Positions 29,531-58,635 of a stretch of 64,000 nucleotides of DNA are shown in pieces (the stretch's first letter is position 1; each line of letters begins with the position of its first letter). The translations under genes and the position numbers were made by a program. Under the pieces are notes generated by a model. It saw only the letters and a list, made by a program, of their open reading frames with translations. It had not been told where the DNA came from and made no database searches. Source of the stretch: Gemmatimonadota bacterium (GTDB taxonomy: Bacteria; Gemmatimonadota; Gemmatimonadetes; Gemmatimonadales; GWC2-71-9); assembly GCA_009692185.1 (NCBI GenBank), contig SHZT01000001.1:205247-269246 (forward strand), written 5' to 3'.

Positions 29531-29848
29531 TCAGCCATCGCCGCCGCCGCCCCCACCGTCTCCCCCGCCCCCACCATCTCCGCCGCCGCCACCATCGCTC
29601 CCTCCAGCATCGCCGGTTCCGCCATCCGCGCCTGCACCATCGCTTCCCCCATCATGCCCTCCCGCATCATGGCTATGGTGACCATCGCCATGATGATGAC
29701 CGTGATGATGCCCGGAAGTGCTCGTGTCGAAATCCCCGGTGGAGTCTCCGGTTCCCCCGCGCCGGCGACGAGGCACCGCGCTCCCGAATACTGTTACGAG
29801 CACGCCGATCGACAGCATGACAACAACGATGACGAATAGCGTCGCCAT
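29531..29848 (-). CDS. Small membrane-anchored His/Gly/Asp-rich low-complexity protein
   Basis: N-terminal TM (ATLFVIVVVMLSIGVLVTVFG), RRRR, then GHHHGHHHGDGHHSHDAGGHDGG followed by (D/G)n. A GGAAGGG RBS-like stretch lies upstream. Confidence 0.5.
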   Translation of the reverse strand: MATLFVIVVVMLSIGVLVTVFGSAVPRRRRGGTGDSTGDFDTSTSGHHHGHHHGDGHHSHDAGGHDGGSDGAGADGGTGDAGGSDGGGGGDGGGGGDGGGGGGDG

Positions 29849-30984: not shown

Positions 30985-31062
30985 GGGAACGCGGAGGCCG
31001 GAAGTGCGAACGCGGAAGTGGAGACCTTCCCCACTTCCGCGTTCCGACTTCCGGCCTCGTTC
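30985..31062. repeat. 78-bp imperfect palindrome with internally repetitive arms (GAACGCGGA / GGAAGTG units); probable terminator after the LVIVD gene
   Basis: Left arm GAACGCGGAGGCCGGAAGTGCGAACGCGGAAGTGG. Right arm CCACTTCCGCGTTCCGACTTCCGGCCTCGTTC, which overlaps the stop codon at 31061. Confidence 0.6.
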
Positions 31063-33094
31063 AGCTAATGCTGCGCGAGCACCCGACCGGGTTCTGCGCG
31101 CCAACCAGGTCCGTCACGGCGCCGGCCAGCTTCCGGACCTTGGGCGCATCCATGGCCGTCATGGCATCGGCATTCAGTTCACCCGCCAGGGCCGTCAGCG
31201 CCGTACGGCGCGCGTCCCCGGAAGCGGCCTCCGCACGGGCCAGCGCGGCACGGGCCGACGAGATCCGCCCGGCGCCGAGGCCGTTCGACCGCTGGAGCTG
31301 GTCGAGATACGAGCAGGCCAGCGCAAAGCTCGGAGGCCAGACCAGCTTGGGCTGGCCCTGGGGATTGAAATAGGGCAGGACGACGGACTTTGCCGCGATC
31401 AGCTCGTTCTCCGAGATGAACTCGCTGGGCGTCAACTCGACCACGTCGAACCCGCGGGCGATCTCCGAGCTGTACATGTTCCCGTTGTACCAGTACGCGG
31501 ACCACGAGCCGCCCGAAACCAGGCGCGTGGAATCCACCGGTCCGCGATCGAAGTACGCGATTTCCTTCACCTGATCCGGATCGGTCCAGTCGAACACCGA
31601 GATGCCGCCCTGGTACCACCCCTGGATCATCACGTCACGGCCGGGAATCGGAATCAGCGAGCCGTTGTGCGCCACGCAATTCTCGAACGCCGTCTGGGCG
31701 GCCGCGATCTTGTAGTAGCTGCGAAACTTGAGCTGGTTGCCGTTCTCGATCGAGAAGATCGCGTTCGCGCCCCATTCCTTCGGGTCATCCGCGCGGCACT
31801 TGGGAGTCGAACCGCCGCCCCACTCGTCCGACCACAGGATCTTGGTGCCGTCGTTGTTGAAGGTGACCGAATGCCACGCGGTCATGTTCGTGGTATCGGT
31901 CGCGGCGGTGATGCGCTTGGGGTTGATCGGGTCGCGAATGTCCAGCAGGATGCCGTACCCCTGGCACGCGCCGCCACCGATACCGGCCTCAGGGTACAGC
32001 GTGATGTCATGGCACTGGTTGGGGCCGGTCGGCCGGCCTCCGCCACCCCCGCCGGGGCCGCCCACCGCGATCGTCATGCGGGGAATGGCCGCCCGGAGCG
32101 CCACGCTGTCCGCGCGGGTACGGGTACCCGCGCCACCGCGGGCCGTGGCGATGCTGTCCAGCAGGCGGTTGGCCACCTGGCCCGGCATGACCTGTTCACG
32201 GCCACCAACTGTCATGACGAAGCCGTTCCCGGCCTTGGCGCCGGCGAGCGCAAGTTGCGCGGCCAGGATGTCGGCCGGCGCATCACCGTGCCGGGGGCCC
32301 GCCGGGCCCATGTTCTCGAAAATGCGGGCTCCGTTCGCGATCGCGGCCGCGGCCGGATTGGCCAGCGGTATGCGGATGATCTCGACGCGGAACTGCGCCG
32401 TGGCCGGGTTCGAGTCCGTGGTCCCGCCGGTGCAGCCGGAGAGCTCGTTGGGCGACCGGACACCGGACGAACCCGACACATAGATGTAGACGTTGTCCCT
32501 GTCCTTCGGGTCCACCAGCACCGTGTGTGTGTGCGAGCCACGGCAGGTCTGGACGCTGGTGATGTACTTGGGGTTCCGGATGTCCGTGATGTCGAAGATG
32601 CGGATGCCGCGCATGCGCTCGGCGCTCACGGAATCCGTGACGCCCTGGATGCCGCAGTCGAGCCGGGCACTCGGGGCTTCGGCGGACATGAACAGCAGCT
32701 GCTGCTTGTAGACCGACACGTCGTTCTGGGACGCCGGGCATACAAAGGACGACACCAGCGTCGGGGACGAGGGATTCGACAGGTCGTAAATCAGGAAGCC
32801 GTGGTAGTTACCCTGCACCGCGTATTTCCCGGTGAACGCGAGGTCCGAGTTGGTGGCGCTGTTGAATCCCGCGCCGGAATTCGCCTTCGGCGCGGAGCTC
32901 AGAAGCCGCGCGTTCCAGATGGCCTCGCCGGCGGTCGACTGGCCGGCCTTGAGACCCACGCGCGGGTCAGCGGCCGCGGTCGGCGCGGGCTGGGCGGGGG
33001 CCGGTGCGGGGCTGGCACTCTGCGAGACAGAACTGGAGTGCGAACAAGCCGCAAGCGCGGCCAGGACGACCACCAGGAAACTCCGGGACGTCAT
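31061..33094 (-). CDS. LVIVD-repeat beta-propeller lipoprotein (COG5276-like), paralogue 1
   Basis: Lipobox LAACS. Repeated propeller segments (YAVQGNYHGFLIYDLSNP, CRGSHTHT, CHDITLYPE, WYQGGISVFDW). Helical C-terminal domain. Confidence 0.75.
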   Translation of the reverse strand: MTSRSFLVVVLAALAACSHSSSVSQSASPAPAPAQPAPTAAADPRVGLKAGQSTAGEAIWNARLLSSAPKANSGAGFNSATNSDLAFTGKYAVQGNYHGFLIYDLSNPSSPTLVSSFVCPASQNDVSVYKQQLLFMSAEAPSARLDCGIQGVTDSVSAERMRGIRIFDITDIRNPKYITSVQTCRGSHTHTVLVDPKDRDNVYIYVSGSSGVRSPNELSGCTGGTTDSNPATAQFRVEIIRIPLANPAAAAIANGARIFENMGPAGPRHGDAPADILAAQLALAGAKAGNGFVMTVGGREQVMPGQVANRLLDSIATARGGAGTRTRADSVALRAAIPRMTIAVGGPGGGGGGRPTGPNQCHDITLYPEAGIGGGACQGYGILLDIRDPINPKRITAATDTTNMTAWHSVTFNNDGTKILWSDEWGGGSTPKCRADDPKEWGANAIFSIENGNQLKFRSYYKIAAAQTAFENCVAHNGSLIPIPGRDVMIQGWYQGGISVFDWTDPDQVKEIAYFDRGPVDSTRLVSGGSWSAYWYNGNMYSSEIARGFDVVELTPSEFISENELIAAKSVVLPYFNPQGQPKLVWPPSFALACSYLDQLQRSNGLGAGRISSARAALARAEAASGDARRTALTALAGELNADAMTAMDAPKVRKLAGAVTDLVGAQNPVGCSRSIS

Positions 33095-33804: not shown

Positions 33805-33848
33805 CACAAAACGGCGCGCCGCGGGGAACCGCCCCGCGGTGCGCCGTT
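33805..33848 (-). terminator. Rho-independent terminator after LVIVD paralogue 2
   Basis: Minus strand: AACGGCGCACCGCGGGGC-GGTT-CCCCGCGGCGCGCCGTT followed by TTTGTGATCTT. Confidence 0.6.
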
Positions 33849-33860
33849 CTGTGTCCTCAC

Positions 33861-48735: not shown

Positions 48736-50000
48736 TCCAGCGCTGCGCCGCGTGTGGGGCGGAATACGCCGAGTCAGACCCCCGGGCCGAGTGCCCGTGT
48801 GGCGGCCTGCTGGACATCGAGCACCCGGCGCCGTCTTTGACCGGCGGCGAGTTGCGGGCCTTGTTCGACAGCCGGCTCGGCGAGCCGACGGGCGCACTGG
48901 CCTCGGGTGTGTGGCGATTCCGGGAGATCGTCCACCCGGCCGCCGGCAACGACGTCGTGACCTGGCCCGAAGGCAATACTCCCCTCCTGTCCCGCGAGGT
49001 GGTGTCGCGCTGGGCCGCCTGCCCCGGGCTCCTCCTGAAACACGAAGGCCAGAACCCCACCGGCTCGTTCAAGGATCGGGGAATGACCGTGGCGGTGACC
49101 CAGGCCCGGCGCCTTGGCGCCAGCGCGGTAGCCTGCGCGACCACGGGAAACACCGGGGCCTCACTCGCCGCCTACGCGGCCATCGCCGGCATCGCAGGGC
49201 TCGTGCTCGTGCCGCGCGGGGGCGTGGCAGCCGGAAAACTGGCGCAGGTCATGGCCTACGGCGCGCGGACGCTGGTCGTTCGGGGAGATTTCGACGCGTG
49301 CCTGCGGCTGGCGCGCGAGGTAGCGGAGGAGCTGGGCGTCTACCTCCTCAACTCGATCAACCCGTTCCGGGTCGAGGGGCAGAAGACCATCGTGCTGGAA
49401 CTGCTCCAGCAGCTTCGGTGGGACCCACCCGCGTGGATCGTCGTGCCGGCCGGCAACCTCGGCAACACGGCCGCGTTCGGGAAGGCATTGCGCGAGGCCC
49501 GGGCGTTCGGGCTTGTCTCACGCGTGCCCCGACTCGCCGCGGTGCAGGCCGAGGGAGCGGCGCCCTTCGCGCAGAGTTTCCGGGACGGCTTCAGGACGAG
49601 GCACCCGGTGACCGCTGAAACCGTGGCGAGCGCCATCCGGATCGGCGACCCCGCCTCGTTCGATCGCGGGGTCCGCGCCATTCGCGAGACGAACGGCGTG
49701 GTGACGACGGTGAGCGACGCGGAGATCATGGAAGCGAAAGCGGTGATAGACGCCGCGGGCGTGGGCTGCGAGCCGGCCAGCGCCGCCAGTGTGGCCGGCG
49801 TGCGGCGACTCGTGCGAGAAGGCGTCATCTGGGCGGACGAACAGGTGGCGGCCGTGCTCACCGGGCACCTGCTCAAAGACCCCGGCATCGTCACGTGGTA
49901 TCACGTGGACGCCCAACCCCGGCCGCCGTTGGCCAACCCGCCGATCGAGATCGAGGCCCGCGTGTCCGAGGTGTCCCGGTTGCTGAAAAAAGAACGTTAG
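48732..50000 (+). CDS. thrC: Threonine synthase
   Basis: GTGA overlap with thrA. N-terminal Cys-x2-C zinc-ribbon-like segment, PLP-Lys context NPTGSFKDRG, and TGNTGASLAAYA. Confidence 0.9.
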   Translation: MIQRCAACGAEYAESDPRAECPCGGLLDIEHPAPSLTGGELRALFDSRLGEPTGALASGVWRFREIVHPAAGNDVVTWPEGNTPLLSREVVSRWAACPGLLLKHEGQNPTGSFKDRGMTVAVTQARRLGASAVACATTGNTGASLAAYAAIAGIAGLVLVPRGGVAAGKLAQVMAYGARTLVVRGDFDACLRLAREVAEELGVYLLNSINPFRVEGQKTIVLELLQQLRWDPPAWIVVPAGNLGNTAAFGKALREARAFGLVSRVPRLAAVQAEGAAPFAQSFRDGFRTRHPVTAETVASAIRIGDPASFDRGVRAIRETNGVVTTVSDAEIMEAKAVIDAAGVGCEPASAASVAGVRRLVREGVIWADEQVAAVLTGHLLKDPGIVTWYHVDAQPRPPLANPPIEIEARVSEVSRLLKKER

Positions 50001-51247
50001 TGCTGCAACTCCGCCGCGCGGGCCGCCAGCCTGGGACTCACCATCGGGAACGCCCGTGCGAACGCGCCATAGGCCAGCAGGTATAGCCCCAGGAAGCCGA
50101 GCATCACGCCGATTTCAGTCAGCCCGAACTCGGGCCCGTTCTCCGTGATCGACGGCTGGACCAGCAGGTAGCGCTCGAGCCACATGCCGGCGAGCGAGAC
50201 CAGGCTGAACAGCGTGAACGTGAACGGCGTCGTCTTCGACTTCACCCAGATCAATCCCCAGAACGGCACCAGGAACACGAGGATCGCCACCAGGATGGAC
50301 ACCGGCCGCCACGCTCCCCACAACCGGTAGAACACGAACGCCGTTTCCTCCGGCAGGTTGCCGTACCAGATGACCAGCACCTGGCTGAACATCGTGTACG
50401 CCCAGAACACCGAGAAGCCGAACACCAGCTTGCCCAGGTCATGGAATTGCTGGCGGCCGATGATCGACTCGAGCCCCAGCTGGCGGCGCCAGTAGACCAT
50501 GTTCAGGGCGAGCGTGGTGAGCCCCGACAAGTGGGCGCCCATGAAGAAGAAGGCGCCGAGCAGGGTGCTGACCCAGTACGGCGCGAGCGACATGATGAGA
50601 TCGAACGCGATCATCGTCATCCCGTACGCGTAGAGCACGATGAGCAGGGGCGAAAGCCAGCCGATCCGGCGGTCGTTCTCGGCCACCTGTTCCGGCGTGC
50701 CGGTGAACCCATTCGTGATGCGGTCGTAGAGCTTGCCGCGCCAGTCTTTCACCAGCGACCGGGCGCCGGCCAGGTCCGGTTTCAGGTCGTACCACACGAA
50801 CGCGATCGACACGCCGGAAAGCACCAGCAGGGTGAACAGGTCCCGCGCGAACACCCACCGCGTCGTGAGCCAGTTGCCCCGCACCGGCGTGGGATGGGCT
50901 ATCCACGGGAAGAGGTGCTCGCGACCGAAAAAGAGAATCACAAAAAGGACGAGCAACACGGGCATGAACGCGACGCCTGCCTCGGAGAACCGGATGATCG
51001 CGCCGCCCCACTTTGCCTTGGTGACCTTCTGGATGGCGGCGAAGACGATCCCGCCTTGCGTGAGCCCGAGGAAGAACAGGAAGTTGATGAGGTACGCGTG
51101 CCACGCGCGGGCGGGTTCGGAGCCTGAGAACCCGACGATGAACGTGACCAGCCCAACGCCCGCCAGCACCGAGCCCGCGACGACGTGACCGCGCAGGGGT
51201 GCGTGGAGCCCCCGCTCGCGGAGGTCCACGTGGGCTCCTCCGCTCAC
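49997..51247 (-). CDS. actF: Alternative Complex III subunit ActF (NrfD-like membrane subunit 2)
   Basis: 10-TM NrfD-like protein at the end of the act operon. Confidence 0.8.
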   Translation of the reverse strand: MSGGAHVDLRERGLHAPLRGHVVAGSVLAGVGLVTFIVGFSGSEPARAWHAYLINFLFFLGLTQGGIVFAAIQKVTKAKWGGAIIRFSEAGVAFMPVLLVLFVILFFGREHLFPWIAHPTPVRGNWLTTRWVFARDLFTLLVLSGVSIAFVWYDLKPDLAGARSLVKDWRGKLYDRITNGFTGTPEQVAENDRRIGWLSPLLIVLYAYGMTMIAFDLIMSLAPYWVSTLLGAFFFMGAHLSGLTTLALNMVYWRRQLGLESIIGRQQFHDLGKLVFGFSVFWAYTMFSQVLVIWYGNLPEETAFVFYRLWGAWRPVSILVAILVFLVPFWGLIWVKSKTTPFTFTLFSLVSLAGMWLERYLLVQPSITENGPEFGLTEIGVMLGFLGLYLLAYGAFARAFPMVSPRLAARAAELQH

Positions 51248-51867
51248 TGCGCCGCCTGGAGGGAGCGGATGTAGTTCACCAGGTGCCAGCGATCAGCCCC
51301 GCGCACCTTGTCTCCGTACATCGGCATGATGCCTCGGCCATAGCGGATCAGCGCGTAGAAGTAGCCGTCGGTGTACCCCTTGGCCTGAGCCGCGGTGAGC
51401 GAGGGCGGCTGGATGAACTTCTCCGTCACCGGCCCGTCGCCTTGCCCCGTCGGGCCGTGGCAGGGATAGCAGTAGATGCCGAAGACTTCCTTGCCCCGGT
51501 CCAACGACTCCGACGTCCGCGGAACGGGGTTCCGCGTCCGGTTGATGGCCGGCAGGTCGGCATCGTTGTCCACGTGAAATTCACGCTCGACCCCGGTGAT
51601 CGGCACCGTGCCCGGTACCGGCGGCCGCGAATGGTCGTAGGGCTGGAGCGCCGGCCCGCGATGCATAGTGGCGAACCACGGAATCAGCTTCACGGCGTCG
51701 TCCGGCGAGGGGAAGCGGTGCCAGGCTTCGCGCGAACAGGAAATCGTGGCAAGGGAGAGCGCCATGAGAACGAGGGGAAAAGGGAAAAGGGAAAAGGGAA
51801 AAGCAAGGCCGTGGGGAGTGAGCCCCACTTTTCCCTTTTCCCTTTTCCCCATTCCCTGGCTACTCAA
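51244..51867 (-). CDS. actE: Alternative Complex III mono-haem cytochrome c subunit ActE
   Basis: One CYPCH haem motif plus a distal Met (MPMYG). The alternative start at 51765 (MALSLATISC) would exclude the hairpin-encoded N-terminus. Confidence 0.8.
   Translation of the reverse strand: MSSQGMGKREKGKVGLTPHGLAFPFSLFPFPLVLMALSLATISCSREAWHRFPSPDDAVKLIPWFATMHRGPALQPYDHSRPPVPGTVPITGVEREFHVDNDADLPAINRTRNPVPRTSESLDRGKEVFGIYCYPCHGPTGQGDGPVTEKFIQPPSLTAAQAKGYTDGYFYALIRYGRGIMPMYGDKVRGADRWHLVNYIRSLQAAQ
51774..51850. repeat. Palindrome with heptamer-repeat arms: (GGGAAAA)x4 ... (TTTTCCC)x3
   Basis: The arms flank a GTGGGG-n6-CCCCAC inner hairpin. It lies between the actD stop (51860) and the internal ATG of actE (51765). 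Confidence 0.85.
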
Positions 51868-52363
51868 CTCGCACCTCTACCGCCCCGGCCGTCTTGAGCG
51901 CCTGCTCGACCGACGGACGCCTCTCGACCGGGCACGGCACGAAGATCCCGATGTGATCGTCACTGCACCGCGGGTCGTACGGCGTCTGTTTCGCCTCGCG
52001 CCACGTGTGAAAGAGCAGGCCCATGATCGTCGCCAATCCGCCGAAGAGGATCGTCATCTCGAACGCGATGACGATGTAGGGCGGAACGGAGCCCAGGGGC
52101 TTGCCGCCCACGACCACCGGGTAGTCGTATGACATCCAGAAGGTGATCGCGAAGCCGCTGAAGCAGCCGAACAAGCCGCCGAGCAAGGTCCAGAGCCGCA
52201 CCGGGCTCGTCGGGTGCCCGATGGCCGCGGCGATCTCGTGGTTCGGCACGGGCGTGTAGACCGTGAATCCCTTGTAGCCCGCTTCCTTGAGCTGGCGAAT
52301 AGCGTGGCTGGCCGAGTCCACGTGCTTGTACACGGCGAGGATCCCGCTCGGCGTGACGCTCAT
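51860..52363 (-). CDS. actD: Alternative Complex III subunit ActD (DUF3341)
   Basis: ATGA overlap with actC. GILAVYKHVDSASHAIRQLKEAGY N-terminus and two TM segments. Confidence 0.8.
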   Translation of the reverse strand: MSVTPSGILAVYKHVDSASHAIRQLKEAGYKGFTVYTPVPNHEIAAAIGHPTSPVRLWTLLGGLFGCFSGFAITFWMSYDYPVVVGGKPLGSVPPYIVIAFEMTILFGGLATIMGLLFHTWREAKQTPYDPRCSDDHIGIFVPCPVERRPSVEQALKTAGAVEVRVE

Positions 52364-53691
52364 TTGTGCGCCGTCGTCTTCCGCTGCATCGGGATGATCT
52401 CCTTCACCTCGGTCAGCGACACGGTGGGGAAGTTGCGCGCGAACAGCAGGAACCAGGTGAAGAACCAGGCAAAGCTCCCCGCCGTGATCGTCCAGTCCAC
52501 CCAGGTCGGCGTGTAGTGGTCCATCGCGAACGGCTCGTACTCGTGCGAGAGCGAGATCACGATGATCACGTAGCGCTCGAACCACATGCCCAGGTTGATG
52601 AACAGCGAGAGCACGAACATCATGGGGATGCTGCGGCGGATCTTGGGGAACCAGAGCAGCTGCGACAGGAACGCATTGCAGATGATCATAGTCCAGGTGG
52701 CCCACCAGTAATCCCCGAACGCGCGGAAGTAGAACGACTCCCGCTCGTATGGGCTCCCGCTGTACCAGGCGATGAAGTACTCGACCAGGTACGCATACCC
52801 CACGATCGACCCGGTGAGCAGCAGCAGCTTGCCCAGGTTGTCGAAATGTTCCTCGTGCACATAGCGCTCGAGCCCGAGCGTCGTGCGCAGCGGCACCAGG
52901 AGGGTGACCACCATCGCGAGCCCCGAGTAGATCGCGCCGGCCACGAAGTAGGGTGCGAAGATGGTCGTGTGCCACCCGGGCACGATGGACACGGCGAAAT
53001 CCCACGACACGACGCTGTGCACCGAGAGCACCAGCGGCGTCGCCAGGGCGGCCAGGAACAAGTAGGCCTTGGTGTAGTGCCGCCACTGCGAGTCGGTACC
53101 TCGCCAATTGAGCGCGAACAACTTGTAGATCTTCCCCCGGAAGCCCGTCACCTTGTCGCGCACGGCGGCAACGTCCGGCACGAGGCCCACGATCAGGAAC
53201 ACAGTGCTCACCGTGAAGTACGTGCTGATGGCGAACACGTCCCACAGGAGCGGCGACTTGAAGTTGGGCCAGAGCTGGCGCTGGTTGGGATAGGGGAACA
53301 ACCAGTAGGCGTACCACAGCCGCCCCAGGTGGATCACCGGGAAGAGGCCCGCCGTCATGACGGCGAACACGGTCATGGCCTCGGCCGTGCGGTACACCGC
53401 CGTTCGCCACGCGGAACGGAACAGGTAGAGAATGGCCGAGATGAGTGTCCCGCAGTGGGCGATACCGACCCAGAACACAAAGTCGGTGATGTACACCGCC
53501 CACATGACCGGGGGCTGGTAACCGGCCATGCCCAGCCCGTAGCGAATCTGGTAGAGGAATGCCACGCCGCCGGCCGCGAGCACGAACAGGACGAAGCCCA
53601 GCAGGATGTAATAGCCCCGCCCCGGCCGGCCCATGGAGGCGACGACGTCGCGGGTGACTTCCGAATAGGTCGGCTGGGTCGCCGTCGTCAC
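52360..53691 (-). CDS. actC: Alternative Complex III quinol-binding subunit ActC (NrfD/PsrC family)
   Basis: 443 aa, 10 TM, NrfD-like. Confidence 0.9.
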   Translation of the reverse strand: MTTATQPTYSEVTRDVVASMGRPGRGYYILLGFVLFVLAAGGVAFLYQIRYGLGMAGYQPPVMWAVYITDFVFWVGIAHCGTLISAILYLFRSAWRTAVYRTAEAMTVFAVMTAGLFPVIHLGRLWYAYWLFPYPNQRQLWPNFKSPLLWDVFAISTYFTVSTVFLIVGLVPDVAAVRDKVTGFRGKIYKLFALNWRGTDSQWRHYTKAYLFLAALATPLVLSVHSVVSWDFAVSIVPGWHTTIFAPYFVAGAIYSGLAMVVTLLVPLRTTLGLERYVHEEHFDNLGKLLLLTGSIVGYAYLVEYFIAWYSGSPYERESFYFRAFGDYWWATWTMIICNAFLSQLLWFPKIRRSIPMMFVLSLFINLGMWFERYVIIVISLSHEYEPFAMDHYTPTWVDWTITAGSFAWFFTWFLLFARNFPTVSLTEVKEIIPMQRKTTAHK

Positions 53692-53695
53692 CAGA

Positions 53696-56600
53696 CTACG
53701 CCTCGACCACGTTGCGGACTTTCCGCAGGTAGGTGACGCCGGGCCTGGTGTTCAGTCCATCGAGCACGTGGTAACCGGTCTCGAGCGCCGCCAGCCGGGA
53801 AACGCGCGAGTTCCGGTCGTTCAGGTCGCCGAACACGATGGCGTCGGCCGGGCAGGTCTGCTGGCAGGCCGTCTGGATCTCCCCGTCCTTGAGCGGCGTC
53901 CCCCGCATGCGAGCGTCGTGCTGTTTTCCGCGGATCCGCTGGACGCAGAAGGTGCATTTCTCCATGACGCCCTTGGAGCGCACGGTCACGTCCGGGTTGA
54001 GCAGGAGGTGCAGGGGCTCCGGCCAGGCATACGTCGTGTCGGCCGGGTTCGACGAGTCGAACCAGTTGAAGTAGCGGACCTTGTAGGGACAGTTGTTGGC
54101 GCAATAGCGCGTGCCCACACAGCGGTTGTACACCTGGCCGTTCAGGCCATCTGGCGTGTGATACGACGCGAAGACGGGGCACACGGGCTCGCACGGCGCG
54201 TTGCCGCACTGCTGGCACATCATGGGCAGAAACCGCGCCTCGAGCGGCCGGTCGTCGTCTCCGCCTTCGAAGTAGCGCTCGATCCGGATCCAGGACATTT
54301 CGCGGCCCCGCCGAACCTGGTCCACGCCTACCTGCGGAATGTTGTTCTCCGAGTAACAGGCGGTAACGCAGGCACTGCACCCGGTGCAGCGGGAGAGATC
54401 GATCGCCAGGCCCCAGCGGGGGTGGTCTCCCGCGTAAGGCGCATGGGCGTTGTAGTCGTCGTAGTGCTCCTGCTGAACTTCTTCGAGGAGTTTCTCGATG
54501 TTCTCCGGGAGGGGCGAGGCCTCATGCGACTCGGGCTCGCCGGTCTCCCCCGCCGCCAACTGCCCGACGGTCACCGCCTGGGCGATGCCGCGGCCCATCT
54601 GCCGCGCGCTCCCCTCGGTGGACGCCAGCCGCTCGTGCACGCCCGTCGCAGCCAGCGACACCGGCACGTAGTGATCCACTCCGCCAAAGGCCGTGGGCGT
54701 CGCCCCCAGCAGGCGATACGCGTTGGCGCCCACATTCTCGGCGAACCGGCCGAAGGCGGTGTGCCCCTGCCCCAGCGGCACAGCCACCACGTCGCGACGG
54801 ACGCCGTGATACACGTACGCCGGCACCGTGATCGAGCCCGACGCGGATTTCACTTCGACGTGATCGCCCTGCGATATGCCGAGCCGCCCCGCCGTGTCCG
54901 GATGGATCTCCACCCAGGTGCTCCAGGTGATCTTGCTGACCGGGTCCGGCAGTTCCTGGAGCCACGGGCGGTTGGCGCCCCGGCCGTCATGAAAGACGGG
55001 CGACGGATACACGATGGCGGTCAGCCCGTCCTCCGCTGAGGCGATCGGGGTCTCGGTGATGCGCGTGGCGGAGGCCGCGAGACCAACCGGGCGCGTCCGC
55101 GCCCGCCGGTACACGCCCCCGGCCCGCAATGACTCGTTCCAGAAGTCCTCGAACGCGCCCGCCACGCCCACCGTGCGCTGGACACCGTGCCACGCGTCCT
55201 TGAGGTAGGTCTCCCACGACGCGGCGGGAAGACGCCGGGCGGCGGTGCCGCCCAGCTTCTGCGCCACGCCGAGGAGCACGTCGCCGGTCTGCTTCGTGTC
55301 GAACACGTTGGACATGACCGGCTGCTGCAGGAGATGCATGCCCGCCCGCGGCTCGGAATCGTTCCACTGCTCCAGGGGATCGGAGTCCGGCAGGATGAGG
55401 TCGGCGCTCATTGCCGTTTCATCCCAGAACCGCGCGAAGCTCACCCTGAACTTCGCCGAGCCGAGTGCATCGCCGAACGCGGTGCCCGGCGTGCCATGCA
55501 CCGGGTTGGCGCCGTGGACGAACAGCACGTCCACCGTGCCATCGGTGATCGCCTTGGTGAGACCCGACAGGGCGGCGTAGCCCAGGCCCGGAAACGTGGC
55601 CTCGGCATCGAACTTGACCGTGCGGTTCACGTTCCCGGCGACGTAGTTAAGGATATGCACCGCCGCCGCGGTGAATGCCGCGTTCGCGTGCTGGGCGCCC
55701 ATGCCCCCGGCGATCGCCAAGCTCGGCCCCGCCACGAATTCCTTCGCCAGGCGTTCGATGATTTCCTCGGATACTCCCGAACGCTCGGCGACGTCCTCCG
55801 GCTCGTACCGGCCGAGCAGGCCACGCAGGGCGGACGCGGGCGGGCCGTTTTTCACGAGCCCGTCTTCCACGATCAGGTGTGCAATGGCGAGGGCCACCTG
55901 GCCCTCGGTACCAGAGTTGGGCGCGACCCATTCGTCCGCGCTCATGCCCGTCATGCCCATGCGAGGCTCGATATGCACGTACCGGGCACGCGTACCGGTG
56001 CGGGCCGCCCGCCCGTCGGCGAAGCCGCGTGTCTGCTCGACCGGCGACCCAAACGTCTCGAGGAAATCGGCGCCGAACGAGAGGACGTATTTCGCCGCGG
56101 CAAAATCGTAGACCGGCACGGCCTCGATGCCGAATACCTCGCGCGTCGCGCGCCTCAGCGCCTCGTGACCGAACGGCTCGAACGACACCCGGTTCGTGGA
56201 GCCGACGCCTCCGAGGAACTGCGTCACCAGGCGGTCGAACGATCCCGTCTCGTGCCCGGTGACGAACCAGACACGGTTCCCCGCCACGCCGGTCAGCTTC
56301 GCCGCCACTGCGGCAATCGCGGCATCCCACGGGATCGGGGCGAACGTGCCATTGGCCTGCTTGGCCATGGGCGTCCGGACGCGGTCGGGGTTGTAGAGAC
56401 CCTGGAGTCCCGCCTGGCCCCGCGCGCAGAGCTTGCCGCGGTTGATGGGGTTCTCCGGGTTCCCTTCGATCTTGACCGCGCGGCCTTCCCGCACCCGCAC
56501 GTGCAGGCCGCACCCCGCGGAACACTCACGGCAGGTGGTGGCGTAGTACGTGGCGATACCCGGCGTCTGGTCCTCGATCGGGACCAGGAACGGGATGAGC

Positions 56601-56797
56601 TTTTCGGCGGGCTCCGTGCAACCGGATGTCGTAGCCACAGCGGCGCTCGTGGCGCCCAGTACCGTCAGAAAGCGCCGACGGTCAATGCCTTCTGACCGGG
56701 CGGGCGGGACGGGCAAGACGGGCGTGGGCCCTTGCCCGTCCTGCCCGCCTCGCCCGTCCTGCCCGTCCTGCCCGTCCTGCCCGTCTAGTAGTGGCAT
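53696..56797 (-). CDS. actB: Alternative Complex III subunit ActB (molybdopterin-oxidoreductase-like fused to 4Fe-4S ferredoxin domain)
   Basis: Twin-arginine motif IDRRRFL, an MopB-like region, and C-terminal Cys clusters (CTGCSACVTAC, CQQCGNAPC, CVGTRYCANNCP, CTFC). The N-terminal 30 codons are encoded by a 9-nt tandem repeat. Confidence 0.9.
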   Translation of the reverse strand: MPLLDGQDGQDGQDGRGGQDGQGPTPVLPVPPARSEGIDRRRFLTVLGATSAAVATTSGCTEPAEKLIPFLVPIEDQTPGIATYYATTCRECSAGCGLHVRVREGRAVKIEGNPENPINRGKLCARGQAGLQGLYNPDRVRTPMAKQANGTFAPIPWDAAIAAVAAKLTGVAGNRVWFVTGHETGSFDRLVTQFLGGVGSTNRVSFEPFGHEALRRATREVFGIEAVPVYDFAAAKYVLSFGADFLETFGSPVEQTRGFADGRAARTGTRARYVHIEPRMGMTGMSADEWVAPNSGTEGQVALAIAHLIVEDGLVKNGPPASALRGLLGRYEPEDVAERSGVSEEIIERLAKEFVAGPSLAIAGGMGAQHANAAFTAAAVHILNYVAGNVNRTVKFDAEATFPGLGYAALSGLTKAITDGTVDVLFVHGANPVHGTPGTAFGDALGSAKFRVSFARFWDETAMSADLILPDSDPLEQWNDSEPRAGMHLLQQPVMSNVFDTKQTGDVLLGVAQKLGGTAARRLPAASWETYLKDAWHGVQRTVGVAGAFEDFWNESLRAGGVYRRARTRPVGLAASATRITETPIASAEDGLTAIVYPSPVFHDGRGANRPWLQELPDPVSKITWSTWVEIHPDTAGRLGISQGDHVEVKSASGSITVPAYVYHGVRRDVVAVPLGQGHTAFGRFAENVGANAYRLLGATPTAFGGVDHYVPVSLAATGVHERLASTEGSARQMGRGIAQAVTVGQLAAGETGEPESHEASPLPENIEKLLEEVQQEHYDDYNAHAPYAGDHPRWGLAIDLSRCTGCSACVTACYSENNIPQVGVDQVRRGREMSWIRIERYFEGGDDDRPLEARFLPMMCQQCGNAPCEPVCPVFASYHTPDGLNGQVYNRCVGTRYCANNCPYKVRYFNWFDSSNPADTTYAWPEPLHLLLNPDVTVRSKGVMEKCTFCVQRIRGKQHDARMRGTPLKDGEIQTACQQTCPADAIVFGDLNDRNSRVSRLAALETGYHVLDGLNTRPGVTYLRKVRNVVEA
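56698..56786. repeat. Palindrome with a 9-nt tandem repeat arm (GCCCGTCCT, ~5.8 copies)
   Basis: Left arm GGGCGGGCGGGACGGGCAAGACGGGCG is complementary to the repeat arm. It covers the actA stop / actB start junction. Confidence 0.8.
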
Positions 56798-57381
56798 GCC
56801 GTACAGTCCGTCGTCTGCTTGTTCTTCTTATGACAATCCAGGCACCAGCCCATTTTCAGCGACGAGTACTGGTAGACCCGTGCCATTTCCTGCACCGGCC
56901 CGTGACACGTCTGGCAGGTGATGCCCGCCCCTTTCACGTGCCGCATGTGAGGGAAGTGCACGAACGGAGGCAGCCGGTGAACCTTGACCCATTCCACCGG
57001 CTGATCGTTGCTGGCTGCCTCCCTGAGTCTTTCGACCTCGGGATTGTCCGTCCCGATGACCGTATGACACCCCATGCACGTGGGGCGGATGGACGGGATC
57101 CCGGCGTGCATGCTGGTCTCGGCCGCGAAATGACAGTACCGGCAGTCCATTTTGTACTGGCCGGCATGGACATCGTGGCGGTAGAAGACGGGCTGGACGG
57201 GACCGGGGAGACCTGCCGTATCGACTGTCGCGGGTGCGACGAAGTTATCTGCGGTGCGGGTCGGTACGGCTTCCTGGGCGTTCGAATTGAGGCATGCGCT
57301 CAGCACAAGCAGGGAGCCGGTGCCGAGCGTGGTAATCGCCAGAGCCAGCGGACCTCGAAGGTTCGGCATGACCCCCTGCAA
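56785..57381 (-). CDS. actA: Alternative Complex III penta-haem cytochrome c subunit ActA
   Basis: Five CxxCH motifs (CRYCH, CMGCH, CQTCH, CLDCH, CTACH) and an N-terminal anchor. Confidence 0.85.
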   Translation of the reverse strand: MQGVMPNLRGPLALAITTLGTGSLLVLSACLNSNAQEAVPTRTADNFVAPATVDTAGLPGPVQPVFYRHDVHAGQYKMDCRYCHFAAETSMHAGIPSIRPTCMGCHTVIGTDNPEVERLREAASNDQPVEWVKVHRLPPFVHFPHMRHVKGAGITCQTCHGPVQEMARVYQYSSLKMGWCLDCHKKNKQTTDCTACHY

Positions 57382-57432
57382 ACAGTGCTTCGTTCGTTTG
57401 AGCCGGCCGTCGGACCAGCTGGGTGAGAAGAT

Positions 57433-58635
57433 TCACGTGACGGCCGGGAAAGAAGATATCGATTCCCGGACATGCGGCAAGGCGGCAACGAGCTCCGCAT
57501 CAAGGGGCATCCGGGGGTCCAGGCGCGCATCCGGAACGGGCATGCGCCCCTGCGCGTCCATTGTCAGCTCGACCAGATCGACGCCCGGGACGTACCAGCG
57601 CTCGCTGGGCTCGATATCCGACGGATACACGAACCCGGCATGCCCGGCGAGGGCCAGCATGGCCTGGGCACCGAGCCCGGTTTCGGGCATGGTGCCCGCC
57701 CACAGCGCGATGCCAGCCTGGACCGCCCGGGCGTAGATCCGGCAGGCCTCCTCCAGCCCCCCGACCCGCTGGATCTTGAGGTTCCAGACCCGTGGGCCTT
57801 CCATCGCGATCACCTGTCGCGCGACGCTATCGGATACGAGGGATTCGTCCAGGCAAATGGGGGTCTTGAGCTCCCGTCCCAGCTCGCGGGAGTCCCAGAG
57901 CCCGTCCGCGGGAAGAGGTTGCTCGAGGAACAGGAGTTGCATGGAATCGAGTTTCCGCAGGGCGTCCTGGTCGCGCGTGGCATCATAGGAGCCGTTCGCG
58001 TCCACCCACATCGGCACCTCGCGCCGGGCGCGCTGCATTTCCTCGCGCGCGATCCGGATCGGTTCCACGTCCCAACCCGGCCGCACCTTGAGCTTGATCC
58101 GCTTGTACCCCCGGCCCAGCGCCTGCGCCACCCAGGTCCGCAGCACGCTAACGTTCATTTCGGGCGGTATGCCCAGCGCCACCCCGCAGTCGATGTGACT
58201 CCGTGTCGCGCGCCACTCCGCCGGAACACCCAGCTCGGCCAGCCGCTCGGACACCAGGGTGGCAAGTGTCACGCCGCGGCGGGCGGCGATCAGGTCCCAC
58301 CATGCCGTCTCCACGCCGGCGCGGGCCATCCGGTTTCCCTGCACCCCGGCCGACAGCAGTTCGGCGCACCGCGAGGGAACGGTCACGGGTTGGTCGAGCA
58401 CGCGCACCAGGAGAATGTCCCGCAGACAGGCCCGGGCCGATGCGACGGTCTCGCTGGAGTAGAACGGCTTCTCGAACGGCGCGGACTCGCCGAGGCCGAC
58501 CTTGCCGTGGGCATCCTTGAGCTCGACGATCAGCGACCGGCGCACCGTCAGGGAGCCGCCGCTGATGACGAACGGCTCCCGGAGCGGCAGGGCAACCTCG
58601 TAGACCCGCGTGCGCAGGATCCGGGGTTCAGTCAT
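57433..58635 (-). CDS. Enolase-superfamily enzyme (o-succinylbenzoate synthase / N-acylamino-acid racemase / dipeptide-epimerase-like)
   Basis: KxK (RIKLKV) and the metal ligands DANGSY, EQP and DES in canonical order. Confidence 0.8.
   Translation of the reverse strand: MTEPRILRTRVYEVALPLREPFVISGGSLTVRRSLIVELKDAHGKVGLGESAPFEKPFYSSETVASARACLRDILLVRVLDQPVTVPSRCAELLSAGVQGNRMARAGVETAWWDLIAARRGVTLATLVSERLAELGVPAEWRATRSHIDCGVALGIPPEMNVSVLRTWVAQALGRGYKRIKLKVRPGWDVEPIRIAREEMQRARREVPMWVDANGSYDATRDQDALRKLDSMQLLFLEQPLPADGLWDSRELGRELKTPICLDESLVSDSVARQVIAMEGPRVWNLKIQRVGGLEEACRIYARAVQAGIALWAGTMPETGLGAQAMLALAGHAGFVYPSDIEPSERWYVPGVDLVELTMDAQGRMPVPDARLDPRMPLDAELVAALPHVRESISSFPAVT

Follow-up and report, generated by a model that had tools for sequence, protein, structure and literature searches.

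The 64-kb stretch of DNA analysed here (henceforth referred to as the window) carries on its minus strand the operon for alternative complex III (ACIII), and the junction between two of its genes, actD and actE, is occupied by a palindrome whose arms consist of tandem copies of a seven-nucleotide unit. The locus raises the question of what such an element represents. The initial annotation had put forward an RNA hairpin between the two cistrons, the N-terminal signal sequence of the cytochrome c subunit ActE, or both. We consider that both probably apply, i.e. that the palindrome is an in-frame insert in the ActE signal peptide that is conserved as a hairpin and functions at the mRNA level as a stem-loop between the two cistrons.

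The actD-actE junction carries a palindrome of heptamer repeats

The palindrome comprises 84 nt (28 codons) between the actD stop codon and the codon for the lipobox cysteine of ActE. The two genes are co-oriented and the array begins 3 nt past the actD TAG. In the mRNA the palindrome has three parts:

51828-51857, minus strand: 5' purine arm, GGGAAUG followed by (GGGAAAA)x3 and G; encodes GMGKREKGK, a basic n-region
51804-51827, minus strand: loop of 24 nt, with an inner 6-bp GC stem (GUGGGG/CCCCAC) at 51811-51828; encodes VGLTPHGL
51774-51803, minus strand: 3' pyrimidine arm, (CUUUUCC)x4; encodes AFPFSLFPFP, a hydrophobic extension

On the plus strand, Tandem Repeats Finder (TRF) reports 51775-51803 as (GGGAAAA)x4.1 with 100% matches and 51828-51857 as (CTTTTCC)x4.3 with 86% matches, the latter being three perfect units and one degenerate unit. 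A repeat search found arms of 23 nt (51774-51796 and 51828-51850) to be perfectly complementary and arms of 29 nt (51775-51803 and 51828-51856) to be complementary at 93%. The sense RNA (51870-51755) folds at -68.3 kcal/mol, compared to a mean of -39.4 (±3.8) kcal/mol for shuffled sequences (z = -7.7), and none of 200 shuffles matched its fold energy. Matches to GGGAAAAGGGAAAA with up to two mismatches number six in the 64 kb, where 0.14 would be expected, and all six are at the actD-actE junction. By its sequence, by TRF, by the complementarity of its arms and by its fold, the heptamer palindrome proposed in the initial annotation is thus real, and its translation, GKREKGK...LAFPFSLFPFPLVLMALSLATISC, had been read correctly. 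The palindrome is longer than the extent proposed, 51774-51850, its outer end being at 51857 and not 51850; furthermore, the codon taken for an ATG at 51867 (51867-51865) is TTG, the first in-frame ATG being at 51852-51850.

An Rfam scan of 50000-58000 in E-value mode gave no family at the gathering threshold, and the only matches were to eukaryotic microRNA-precursor models, with 20-40 bits against 47-115. We rejected an intrinsic terminator, as the terminator scan gave no site on the sense (minus) strand. A terminator-like score was obtained only for the plus (antisense) strand, where TTTTCCCTTT comes directly after GTGGGGAGTGAGCCCCAC of the inner stem (51811-51837); this site could terminate antisense transcripts running into the operon, or it may be a side effect of the palindromic sequence.

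The hairpin is retained among relatives

A scan of genome contigs gave no relative with more than 60% ActE identity, and the close relatives were short metagenome contigs only; the metagenome scan yielded eight loci. At the equivalent place in the actD-actE junction the closest relatives also carry palindromes, with their units changed. The junction elements compared are listed below with the ActE identity to the window:

L083, 86%: GGGAAAA, degenerating
L082, 76-80%: units GGGACGA / TCGTC(C/T)C
L095, 70% (protein P0010): units GGGACGA / TCGTC(C/T)C
L081, 80%: units GGGGAAC / GTTCCCC
L092, 68% (protein P0012): units GGGTGCT / AGCACCC
L087, 61%: unit CCGATAT
L090, 56%: units CCGTTCT / ACAACGG, with one C.C mismatch per unit
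L091, 81%: 8-mer units GGCATGAC / GTCATGCC
L086, 57%: non-repetitive hairpin, about -113 kcal/mol

We rejected an assembly artefact, since independent metagenome assemblies show identical or analogous palindromes at this junction. Strong Watson-Crick hairpins are rare in related loci, with at least eight in about 490 kb, and four of the eight are actD-actE junction elements; a hairpin scan that allows Watson-Crick pairs only missed the G.U-rich or periodically mismatched elements of L095, L087, L090 and L092.

RNAalifold, applied to six aligned junction elements, returned a single helix of 35 pairs, with 88.9% of the cells paired and double compensatory changes in 20 of the 35 pairs. None of 500 column shuffles equalled the observed pairing, and partners slid by 1-3 columns paired at 52-62%. 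Of 11 junctions compared, 9 had a more stable fold on the sense than on the antisense strand. In the six-element alignment G.U cells outnumbered A.C cells by about 24 to 5, an asymmetry that is only a hint of RNA-level selection. The hairpin proposed in the initial annotation is therefore one that is kept in relatives, with compensatory changes, though the repeat units differ. Sequence comparison gives solid support to structural conservation, as it does to translation (see below): the conserved entity is the nucleic-acid hairpin, the pairing of which is kept, while the peptide and the repeat unit turn over.

Several points weigh against an RNA-level function. The covariation counts are inflated, since each arm is made of repeated copies of its unit and the cells of the alignment are non-independent, and slippage together with template switching could, even in the absence of selection, co-correct the two arms of a palindrome. 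A C-to-T bias of the non-template strand or selection for hydrophobic codons could account for the G.U excess, and two elements (L090 and L086) fold better as antisense. Finally, most Gemmatimonadales ACIII operons are without any insert, the distance from the actD stop to the cysteine codon then being 31-67 nt, and the hairpin is therefore not needed for ACIII.

The main rival to an RNA function is accordingly a functionless, self-homogenising simple repeat, i.e. a neutral or selfish palindrome that is homogenised by slippage, has its arms corrected through the hairpin and survives only in dispensable sequence, namely cleaved n-regions of signal peptides and true spacers, while still being translated. 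The absence of the element from most Gemmatimonadales junctions and the wholesale replacement of the unit sequence between relatives are what such a palindrome would be expected to display. The same applies to the periodic mismatches (C.C in each unit of L090, G.U in each unit of L095), which show arm-by-arm homogenisation, and to the dispensable sequence occupied by all three palindromes of this kind in the window (the other two are described below). On the other hand, the arms are ~85-100% paired across lineages whose ActE proteins are 57-86% identical, the onset of the hairpin is always within about 16 nt of the upstream stop codon, and the sense strand is mostly the better folder; none of these three observations is decisive. 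We regard the neutral palindrome as a possible explanation that has to be kept in mind, albeit an unlikely one.

The palindrome lies in frame within the ActE signal peptide

The following features of the minus strand are relevant to whether the palindrome is translated:

51872-51877, minus strand: Shine-Dalgarno-like GAGGTG, within the last actD codons and 4 nt upstream of TTG 51867
51865-51867, minus strand: TTG, the ActE start codon conserved across the family; located at -7 relative to the actD stop and overlapping the actD end
51860-51862, minus strand: actD stop codon TAG, where the 167-amino-acid ActD ends
51850-51852, minus strand: in-frame ATG, a possible alternative start, inside the degenerate outermost unit GGGAATG and five codons after TTG
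51763-51765, minus strand: internal ATG, an unlikely start, nine uncharged residues before the cysteine
51739-51773, minus strand: native hydrophobic core and lipobox, LVLMALSLATIS, aligning with the h-region and lipobox of all homologues; Kyte-Doolittle window maximum 2.54
51736-51738, minus strand: TGT, the lipobox +1 cysteine and predicted lipidation site, invariant in ActE homologues

Using tblastn, the actD stop and the ActE frame were placed in the window and in loci from GTDB genomes and metagenome contigs, 83 in all, and the ActE frame was offset from the actD stop by 1 mod 3 in 82 of them, the exception being a Rokubacteria locus. The same offset was found in all of five further distinct junctions (six loci, L092 being the same as L093) that were picked because the gene-called ActE began suspiciously late, which brings the total to 87 of 88. 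The stop-to-cysteine gaps of the ten hairpin junctions are 121 nt (window and L083), 109 nt (L082), 127 nt (L095), 85 nt (L091), 136 nt (L087 and L090), 178 nt (L086) and 130 nt (L012 and L092). Despite units of 7 or 8 nt, all ten inserts, which represent eight or more different sequences, are in frame and stop-free, and if the inserts are independent (at least 7-8 distinct elements) the chance of such frame retention is ~(1/3)^7 = 5e-4 or lower. Length modulo 3, with units of 7 and 8 nt, thus provides a simple comparative test of whether a junction hairpin is translated.

An in-frame ATG, GTG or TTG is present at -13 to +5 of the actD stop in every locus inspected (about 85), commonly preceded among related loci by a GGAGGTG-like motif in the last actD codons, and L092 retains the canonical MRRN start ahead of its insert. 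The open reading frame (ORF) listing likewise begins the ActE ORF at TTG 51867; ATG 51852 is not conserved, the closest relative (L083) having GGGAAAA there. Because the frame is kept in all inserts and a conserved start codon lies upstream of them, we conclude that the palindrome is an insert of 28 codons that lies in frame within the n-region of the predicted signal peptide of the ActE pre-lipoprotein and is hence translated. The comparison of junctions, by placing the start of translation upstream of the palindrome, upholds the signal-peptide coding role proposed in the initial annotation.

The leader predicted from TTG has 43 residues and consists of an n-region with a net charge of +3, an uncharged stretch and then LVLMALSLATI (Kyte-Doolittle 2.54). 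The n-region charge is +3 from either TTG 51867 or ATG 51852, and a start at ATG 51765 would give the uncharged MALSLATIS. The charged n-region and the hydrophobic core of 7-22 residues that mark a signal peptidase II signal are hence present from the first two start codons and not from the third. The leaders of the ActE homologues all end in a lipobox, ..[AGS]C, followed by [ST]R[ED]xW[QH]R; that of the window ActE is A-T-I-S-C, its cysteine (column C10) is invariant in 29 aligned homologues, and we take it to fit the residue classes of PROSITE PS51257. By the heuristic of the same PROSITE entry, the cysteine of a lipoprotein is usually within about residues 15-35. In the window ActE it is residue 44 from TTG, 39 from ATG 51852 and 10 from ATG 51765, compared to about 16-26 in canonical relatives, and a signal peptide of 43 or 38 residues puts it beyond that range, which counts against our interpretation. 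The ActE of Rhodothermus marinus has been described as a lipoprotein with its lipobox at L21-C24 (PMC5928083). Given this description and the lipobox of the homologues, a functional signal peptide must precede Cys 51738.

The palindrome would instead be an untranslated spacer, that is, a non-coding intergenic hairpin, if ActE started at ATG 51765 (MALSLATISC...). An ATG is present at this position, and gene callers took downstream starts in P0002, P0003, P0004 and P0012. However, the leader from this ATG is short and uncharged, the sequence upstream of it is pyrimidine-rich and without a Shine-Dalgarno, and the equivalent post-insert ATGs in L082 and L092 would leave only 3-5 residues before the cysteine (MAGC or MLSAGC). 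Moreover, the length of the insert is a multiple of three in each of the ten junctions, without in-frame stops, and the conserved start codon upstream overlaps the actD stop. We therefore rejected ATG 51765 as the ActE start and consider a non-coding hairpin very improbable.

Equally, we find it hard to believe that the array is a phase-variation switch, in which the gain or loss of 7-nt units would shift the ActE frame on and off in the population. It is true that the unit length is not divisible by three and that the repeat is within the region coding for the signal peptide, and a precedent is found in the opa genes of Neisseria, where a CTCTT array in the leader peptide varies at ~10^-3 per generation and serves as an on/off switch (PMC3745409). 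The ActE element resembles that of opa in having a pyrimidine-rich short tandem repeat, with a unit not divisible by three, that encodes part of a signal peptide. In contrast to opa, which has a single array and no complementary arm, the ActE element keeps a hairpin partner arm, which phase variation leaves unexplained, and its frame is invariant in all ten insert junctions, with no OFF allele among them. In addition, the arrays are short (about four units) and the complex to which the ActE subunit belongs is central to respiration.

A proposed role for the stem-loop

An in-frame insert that acts as a hairpin could be accommodated in the operon as follows. Initiation would occur at TTG 51867 (Shine-Dalgarno GAGGTG, 51877-51872), with ATG 51852 as an alternative, and the ribosome would pass the purine arm (GKREKGK), the loop and the pyrimidine arm (AFPFSLFPFP) before it reached the lipobox cysteine by way of the native core LVLMALSLATIS. 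The predicted cleavage by signal peptidase II would cut off the whole insert and leave the mature ActE unchanged, and because of this the insert would be tolerated in an operon of overlapping, spacer-less cistrons. The encoded peptide itself, we infer, is tolerated and not selected. The arms mimic a basic n-region and a hydrophobic h-region only in the GGGAAAA version, and other units give arginines in the 3' arm.

The stem-loop right after the actD stop would then act in the mRNA, between the cistrons. With the base of the stem ~11 nt past TTG, an initiating ribosome would abut the stem and a ribosome terminating at actD must have opened its base; such a geometry would tie actE initiation to ribosomes arriving from actD, and the stem could also bias a post-termination ribosome back toward the overlapping ActE start. 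Alternatively, the stem-loop could, as a barrier, determine how stable the mRNA segment upstream of it is in relation to that downstream, and a role as an exonuclease barrier, similar to that of repetitive extragenic palindromic (REP) elements, is as compatible with the data as translational coupling. We infer an action at the RNA level and a role in either coupling or stability. If the hairpin does act in the mRNA, it would represent an undescribed control of coupling or segmental stability in the respiratory operons of a poorly studied phylum, and would show that paired heptamer repeats, a class that has received little study, are not confined to Xanthomonas and cyanobacteria. The ActE junction is also a clean natural case in which an RNA or DNA structure and protein coding share the constraint on 84 nt.

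Comparison with known repeat elements

The closest known kind of element is the paired G-rich heptamer repeats of Xanthomonas, which are here threaded in frame through a signal peptide. The heptamers GGGAATC of Xanthomonas and GGGGAYT of Nostoc prefer about four units and occur as convergent inverted pairs (Rehm et al. 2015, PMC4692102). There are 70-75 such pairs per genome, which are stem-loop-capable and transcribed; the ORFs on either side of them are co-oriented, and a stop codon is no more than 50 bp away (PMC4692102). The ActE element shares with this class a 7-nt G3 unit in about four copies, (GGGAAAA)x4.1, two convergent arrays that form a stem-loop and a location between co-oriented ORFs less than 50 bp from a stop codon. 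It differs in the phylum (Gemmatimonadota as opposed to Xanthomonas and Nostoc), in its site-specific unit and in its coding status. Whereas one unit is dispersed genome-wide in the known class, the GGGAAAA unit is found only at the ActE site within the 64 kb, each palindrome of the window has its own unit (GGGAAAA, the 9-mer GGACGGGCA and a CGGAAGTG-type unit) and the units at orthologous sites differ. Furthermore, whereas the known class is under-represented in coding sequence, the ActE element is predicted to be translated in frame and is frame-constrained.

A functional G-quadruplex (G4), formed in DNA or RNA by the four G3 tracts of the purine arm, is the most improbable explanation of all: although (GGGAAAA)x4 fits G3N4 x4, the isolated arm gives a G4 at -12.9 kcal/mol in silico (G4-aware fold) and the Xanthomonas and Nostoc heptamers favour four units and form G4s in vitro (PMC4692102), in context the hairpin prevails at -70 kcal/mol in the same kind of fold, and the CCGATAT, CCGTTCT and GGCATGAC elements lack G-tract periodicity yet keep the hairpin, and we therefore rejected the G4 as a conserved feature.

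The ActE stem-loop is stable and located just past a stop codon between co-transcribed genes, as are REP elements and bacterial interspersed mosaic elements (BIMEs), and the mode of action proposed for it is shared with them. REP/BIME stem-loops, e.g. that between malE and malF of E. coli, protect the upstream mRNA from 3' exonucleases. REPs are imperfect palindromes of 20-40 bp that occur in high copy, share a genome-wide consensus with a GTAG or CGTC end tag, lie outside genes by definition and depend on RAYT transposases for their mobility. None of this applies to the ActE element, which is 84 nt long, array-armed, unique in the window and without a GTAG/CGTC tag. We rejected a dispersed element of the REP type or of the miniature inverted-repeat transposable element type, as there is no second copy in the window and orthologous sites carry different units. 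A general description of REP/BIME elements is given in PMC3733652.

In its translation the ActE palindrome is reminiscent of the Rickettsia palindromic elements (RPEs), reportedly described by Ogata et al. in 2000, which are said to be palindromic repeats inserted in frame in protein-coding genes. As with RPEs, the ActE palindrome would be read in frame and would be tolerated because the part of the protein in which it has landed is dispensable. RPEs, however, form a dispersed family, 100-150 bp in length and conserved in sequence, without tandem short units and without any tie to signal peptides or cistron junctions, whereas the ActE palindrome is built of tandem short units and lies at a cistron junction, in a signal peptide.

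Similar palindromes elsewhere in the window

A scan of the window for long inverted repeats gave two more palindromes with tandem-repeat arms:

56701-56785, minus strand: palindrome in the n-region of the ActB Tat signal, (GGACGGGCA)x~5 facing (UGCCCGUCC)n, given also as (TGCCCGTCC)n
30994-31058, spacer between two genes: non-coding hairpin with CGGAAGTG-type repeated arms, -60 kcal/mol, z = -7.7

The first of these begins at the actA stop (56787-56785), inside the ActB ORF, and translates as (DGQ)n...PVLPVPP (MPLLDGQDGQDGQDG...PVLPVPPARSEG). It lengthens the stretch of ActB before the twin-arginine motif IDRRRFL to 38 residues, compared to about 5-16 in most homologues; a close ActB homologue, P0101, has a similar DGQ/TVS repeat (DGHDGQDGQDGQ...TVSTVSTVS). 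The second fills a spacer of 90 nt after the stop of an LVIVD-repeat gene (31061-33094, minus strand) and before an AGGAGA Shine-Dalgarno and GTG, and it is considered non-coding because it stands between a stop codon and the Shine-Dalgarno of the next gene, the product of which begins MKVIIFGATGMIG.

All three palindromes of the window start 0-6 nt after the stop codon of the upstream cistron, and two of the three lie in a cistron that overlaps the one before it, in the region coding for a cleavable signal peptide. We tentatively suggest, while regarding it as doubtful, that this Gemmatimonadota lineage may use self-renewing hairpins with simple-repeat arms as intercistronic RNA elements directly after stop codons. 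Where cistrons overlap without a spacer, the hairpins would run in frame through Sec or Tat signal peptides that are cleaved off, such that the structure is selected and the peptide is disposable. A palindrome that reads purine and then pyrimidine can on its own provide a basic n-region and a hydrophobic stretch, and signal-peptide-like sequence would in this way be able to arise from non-protein constraints.

A partial palindrome is present at another overlapping gene junction (1049-1106), where the last codons of the gene for a sodium:solute symporter (5-1081) consist of (GGAACGAG)x3.8 and a complementary single copy, CTCGTTCCC, is found at 1098-1106 inside the start of the overlapping gene for a BadF/BadG-type ATPase (GTG 1078). 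In a distant Gemmatimonadales metagenome-assembled genome (L046, 4674-4734), a palindrome with CGGGACG-type heptamer-repeat arms (period 7) is located outside the actD-actE junction. The window further contains an 18-nt tandem repeat, (CCGCCCCCACCATCTCCC)x2.8, at 29547-29596 and, at 33805-33853, a GC-rich hairpin (22 bp, loop of 5 nt) that is possibly a terminator.

The ACIII operon and its annotation

The assignment of the operon to ACIII in the initial annotation agrees with the Pfam domains of ActA, ActB, ActD, ActE and ActF, and named homologues indicate that the window is from Gemmatimonadota. The subunits, assigned by Pfam unless stated otherwise, are as follows:

56785-57381, minus strand: ActA, multihaem cytochrome
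53696-56797, minus strand: ActB, molybdopterin and 4Fe-4S domains
about 52360-53691, minus strand: ActC, assigned by position and by the NrfD match of its L094 homologue, outside the Pfam scan
51860-52363, minus strand: ActD, 167 amino acids, PF11821 (167-170 amino acids in relatives)
51244-51867, minus strand: ActE pre-protein ORF, monohaem cytochrome c, with a 43-amino-acid signal peptide if TTG is the start
49997-51247, minus strand: ActF, NrfD-like

Gene callers start ActE and ActB inconsistently around the palindromes and produce either truncated leaders (MAGC, MLSAGC, MALSLATISC) or low-complexity N-termini, as in P0008 (MRNAECGMRS...FRFLHSAFRIL); the gene calls affected are P0002, P0003, P0004, P0010 and P0012. 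Misplaced ActE and ActB starts would mislead predictions of export. In addition, the metagenome contig L081 ends inside its junction palindrome (L081 1-84), and junction palindromes cause systematic assembly breaks as well as start-codon errors. Upstream of the junction, the actC stop and the actD start overlap as ATGA, and a 547-amino-acid ORF on the minus strand (51860-53503) is not a gene, its last 167 codons being ActD and the rest an open alternative frame over ActC.

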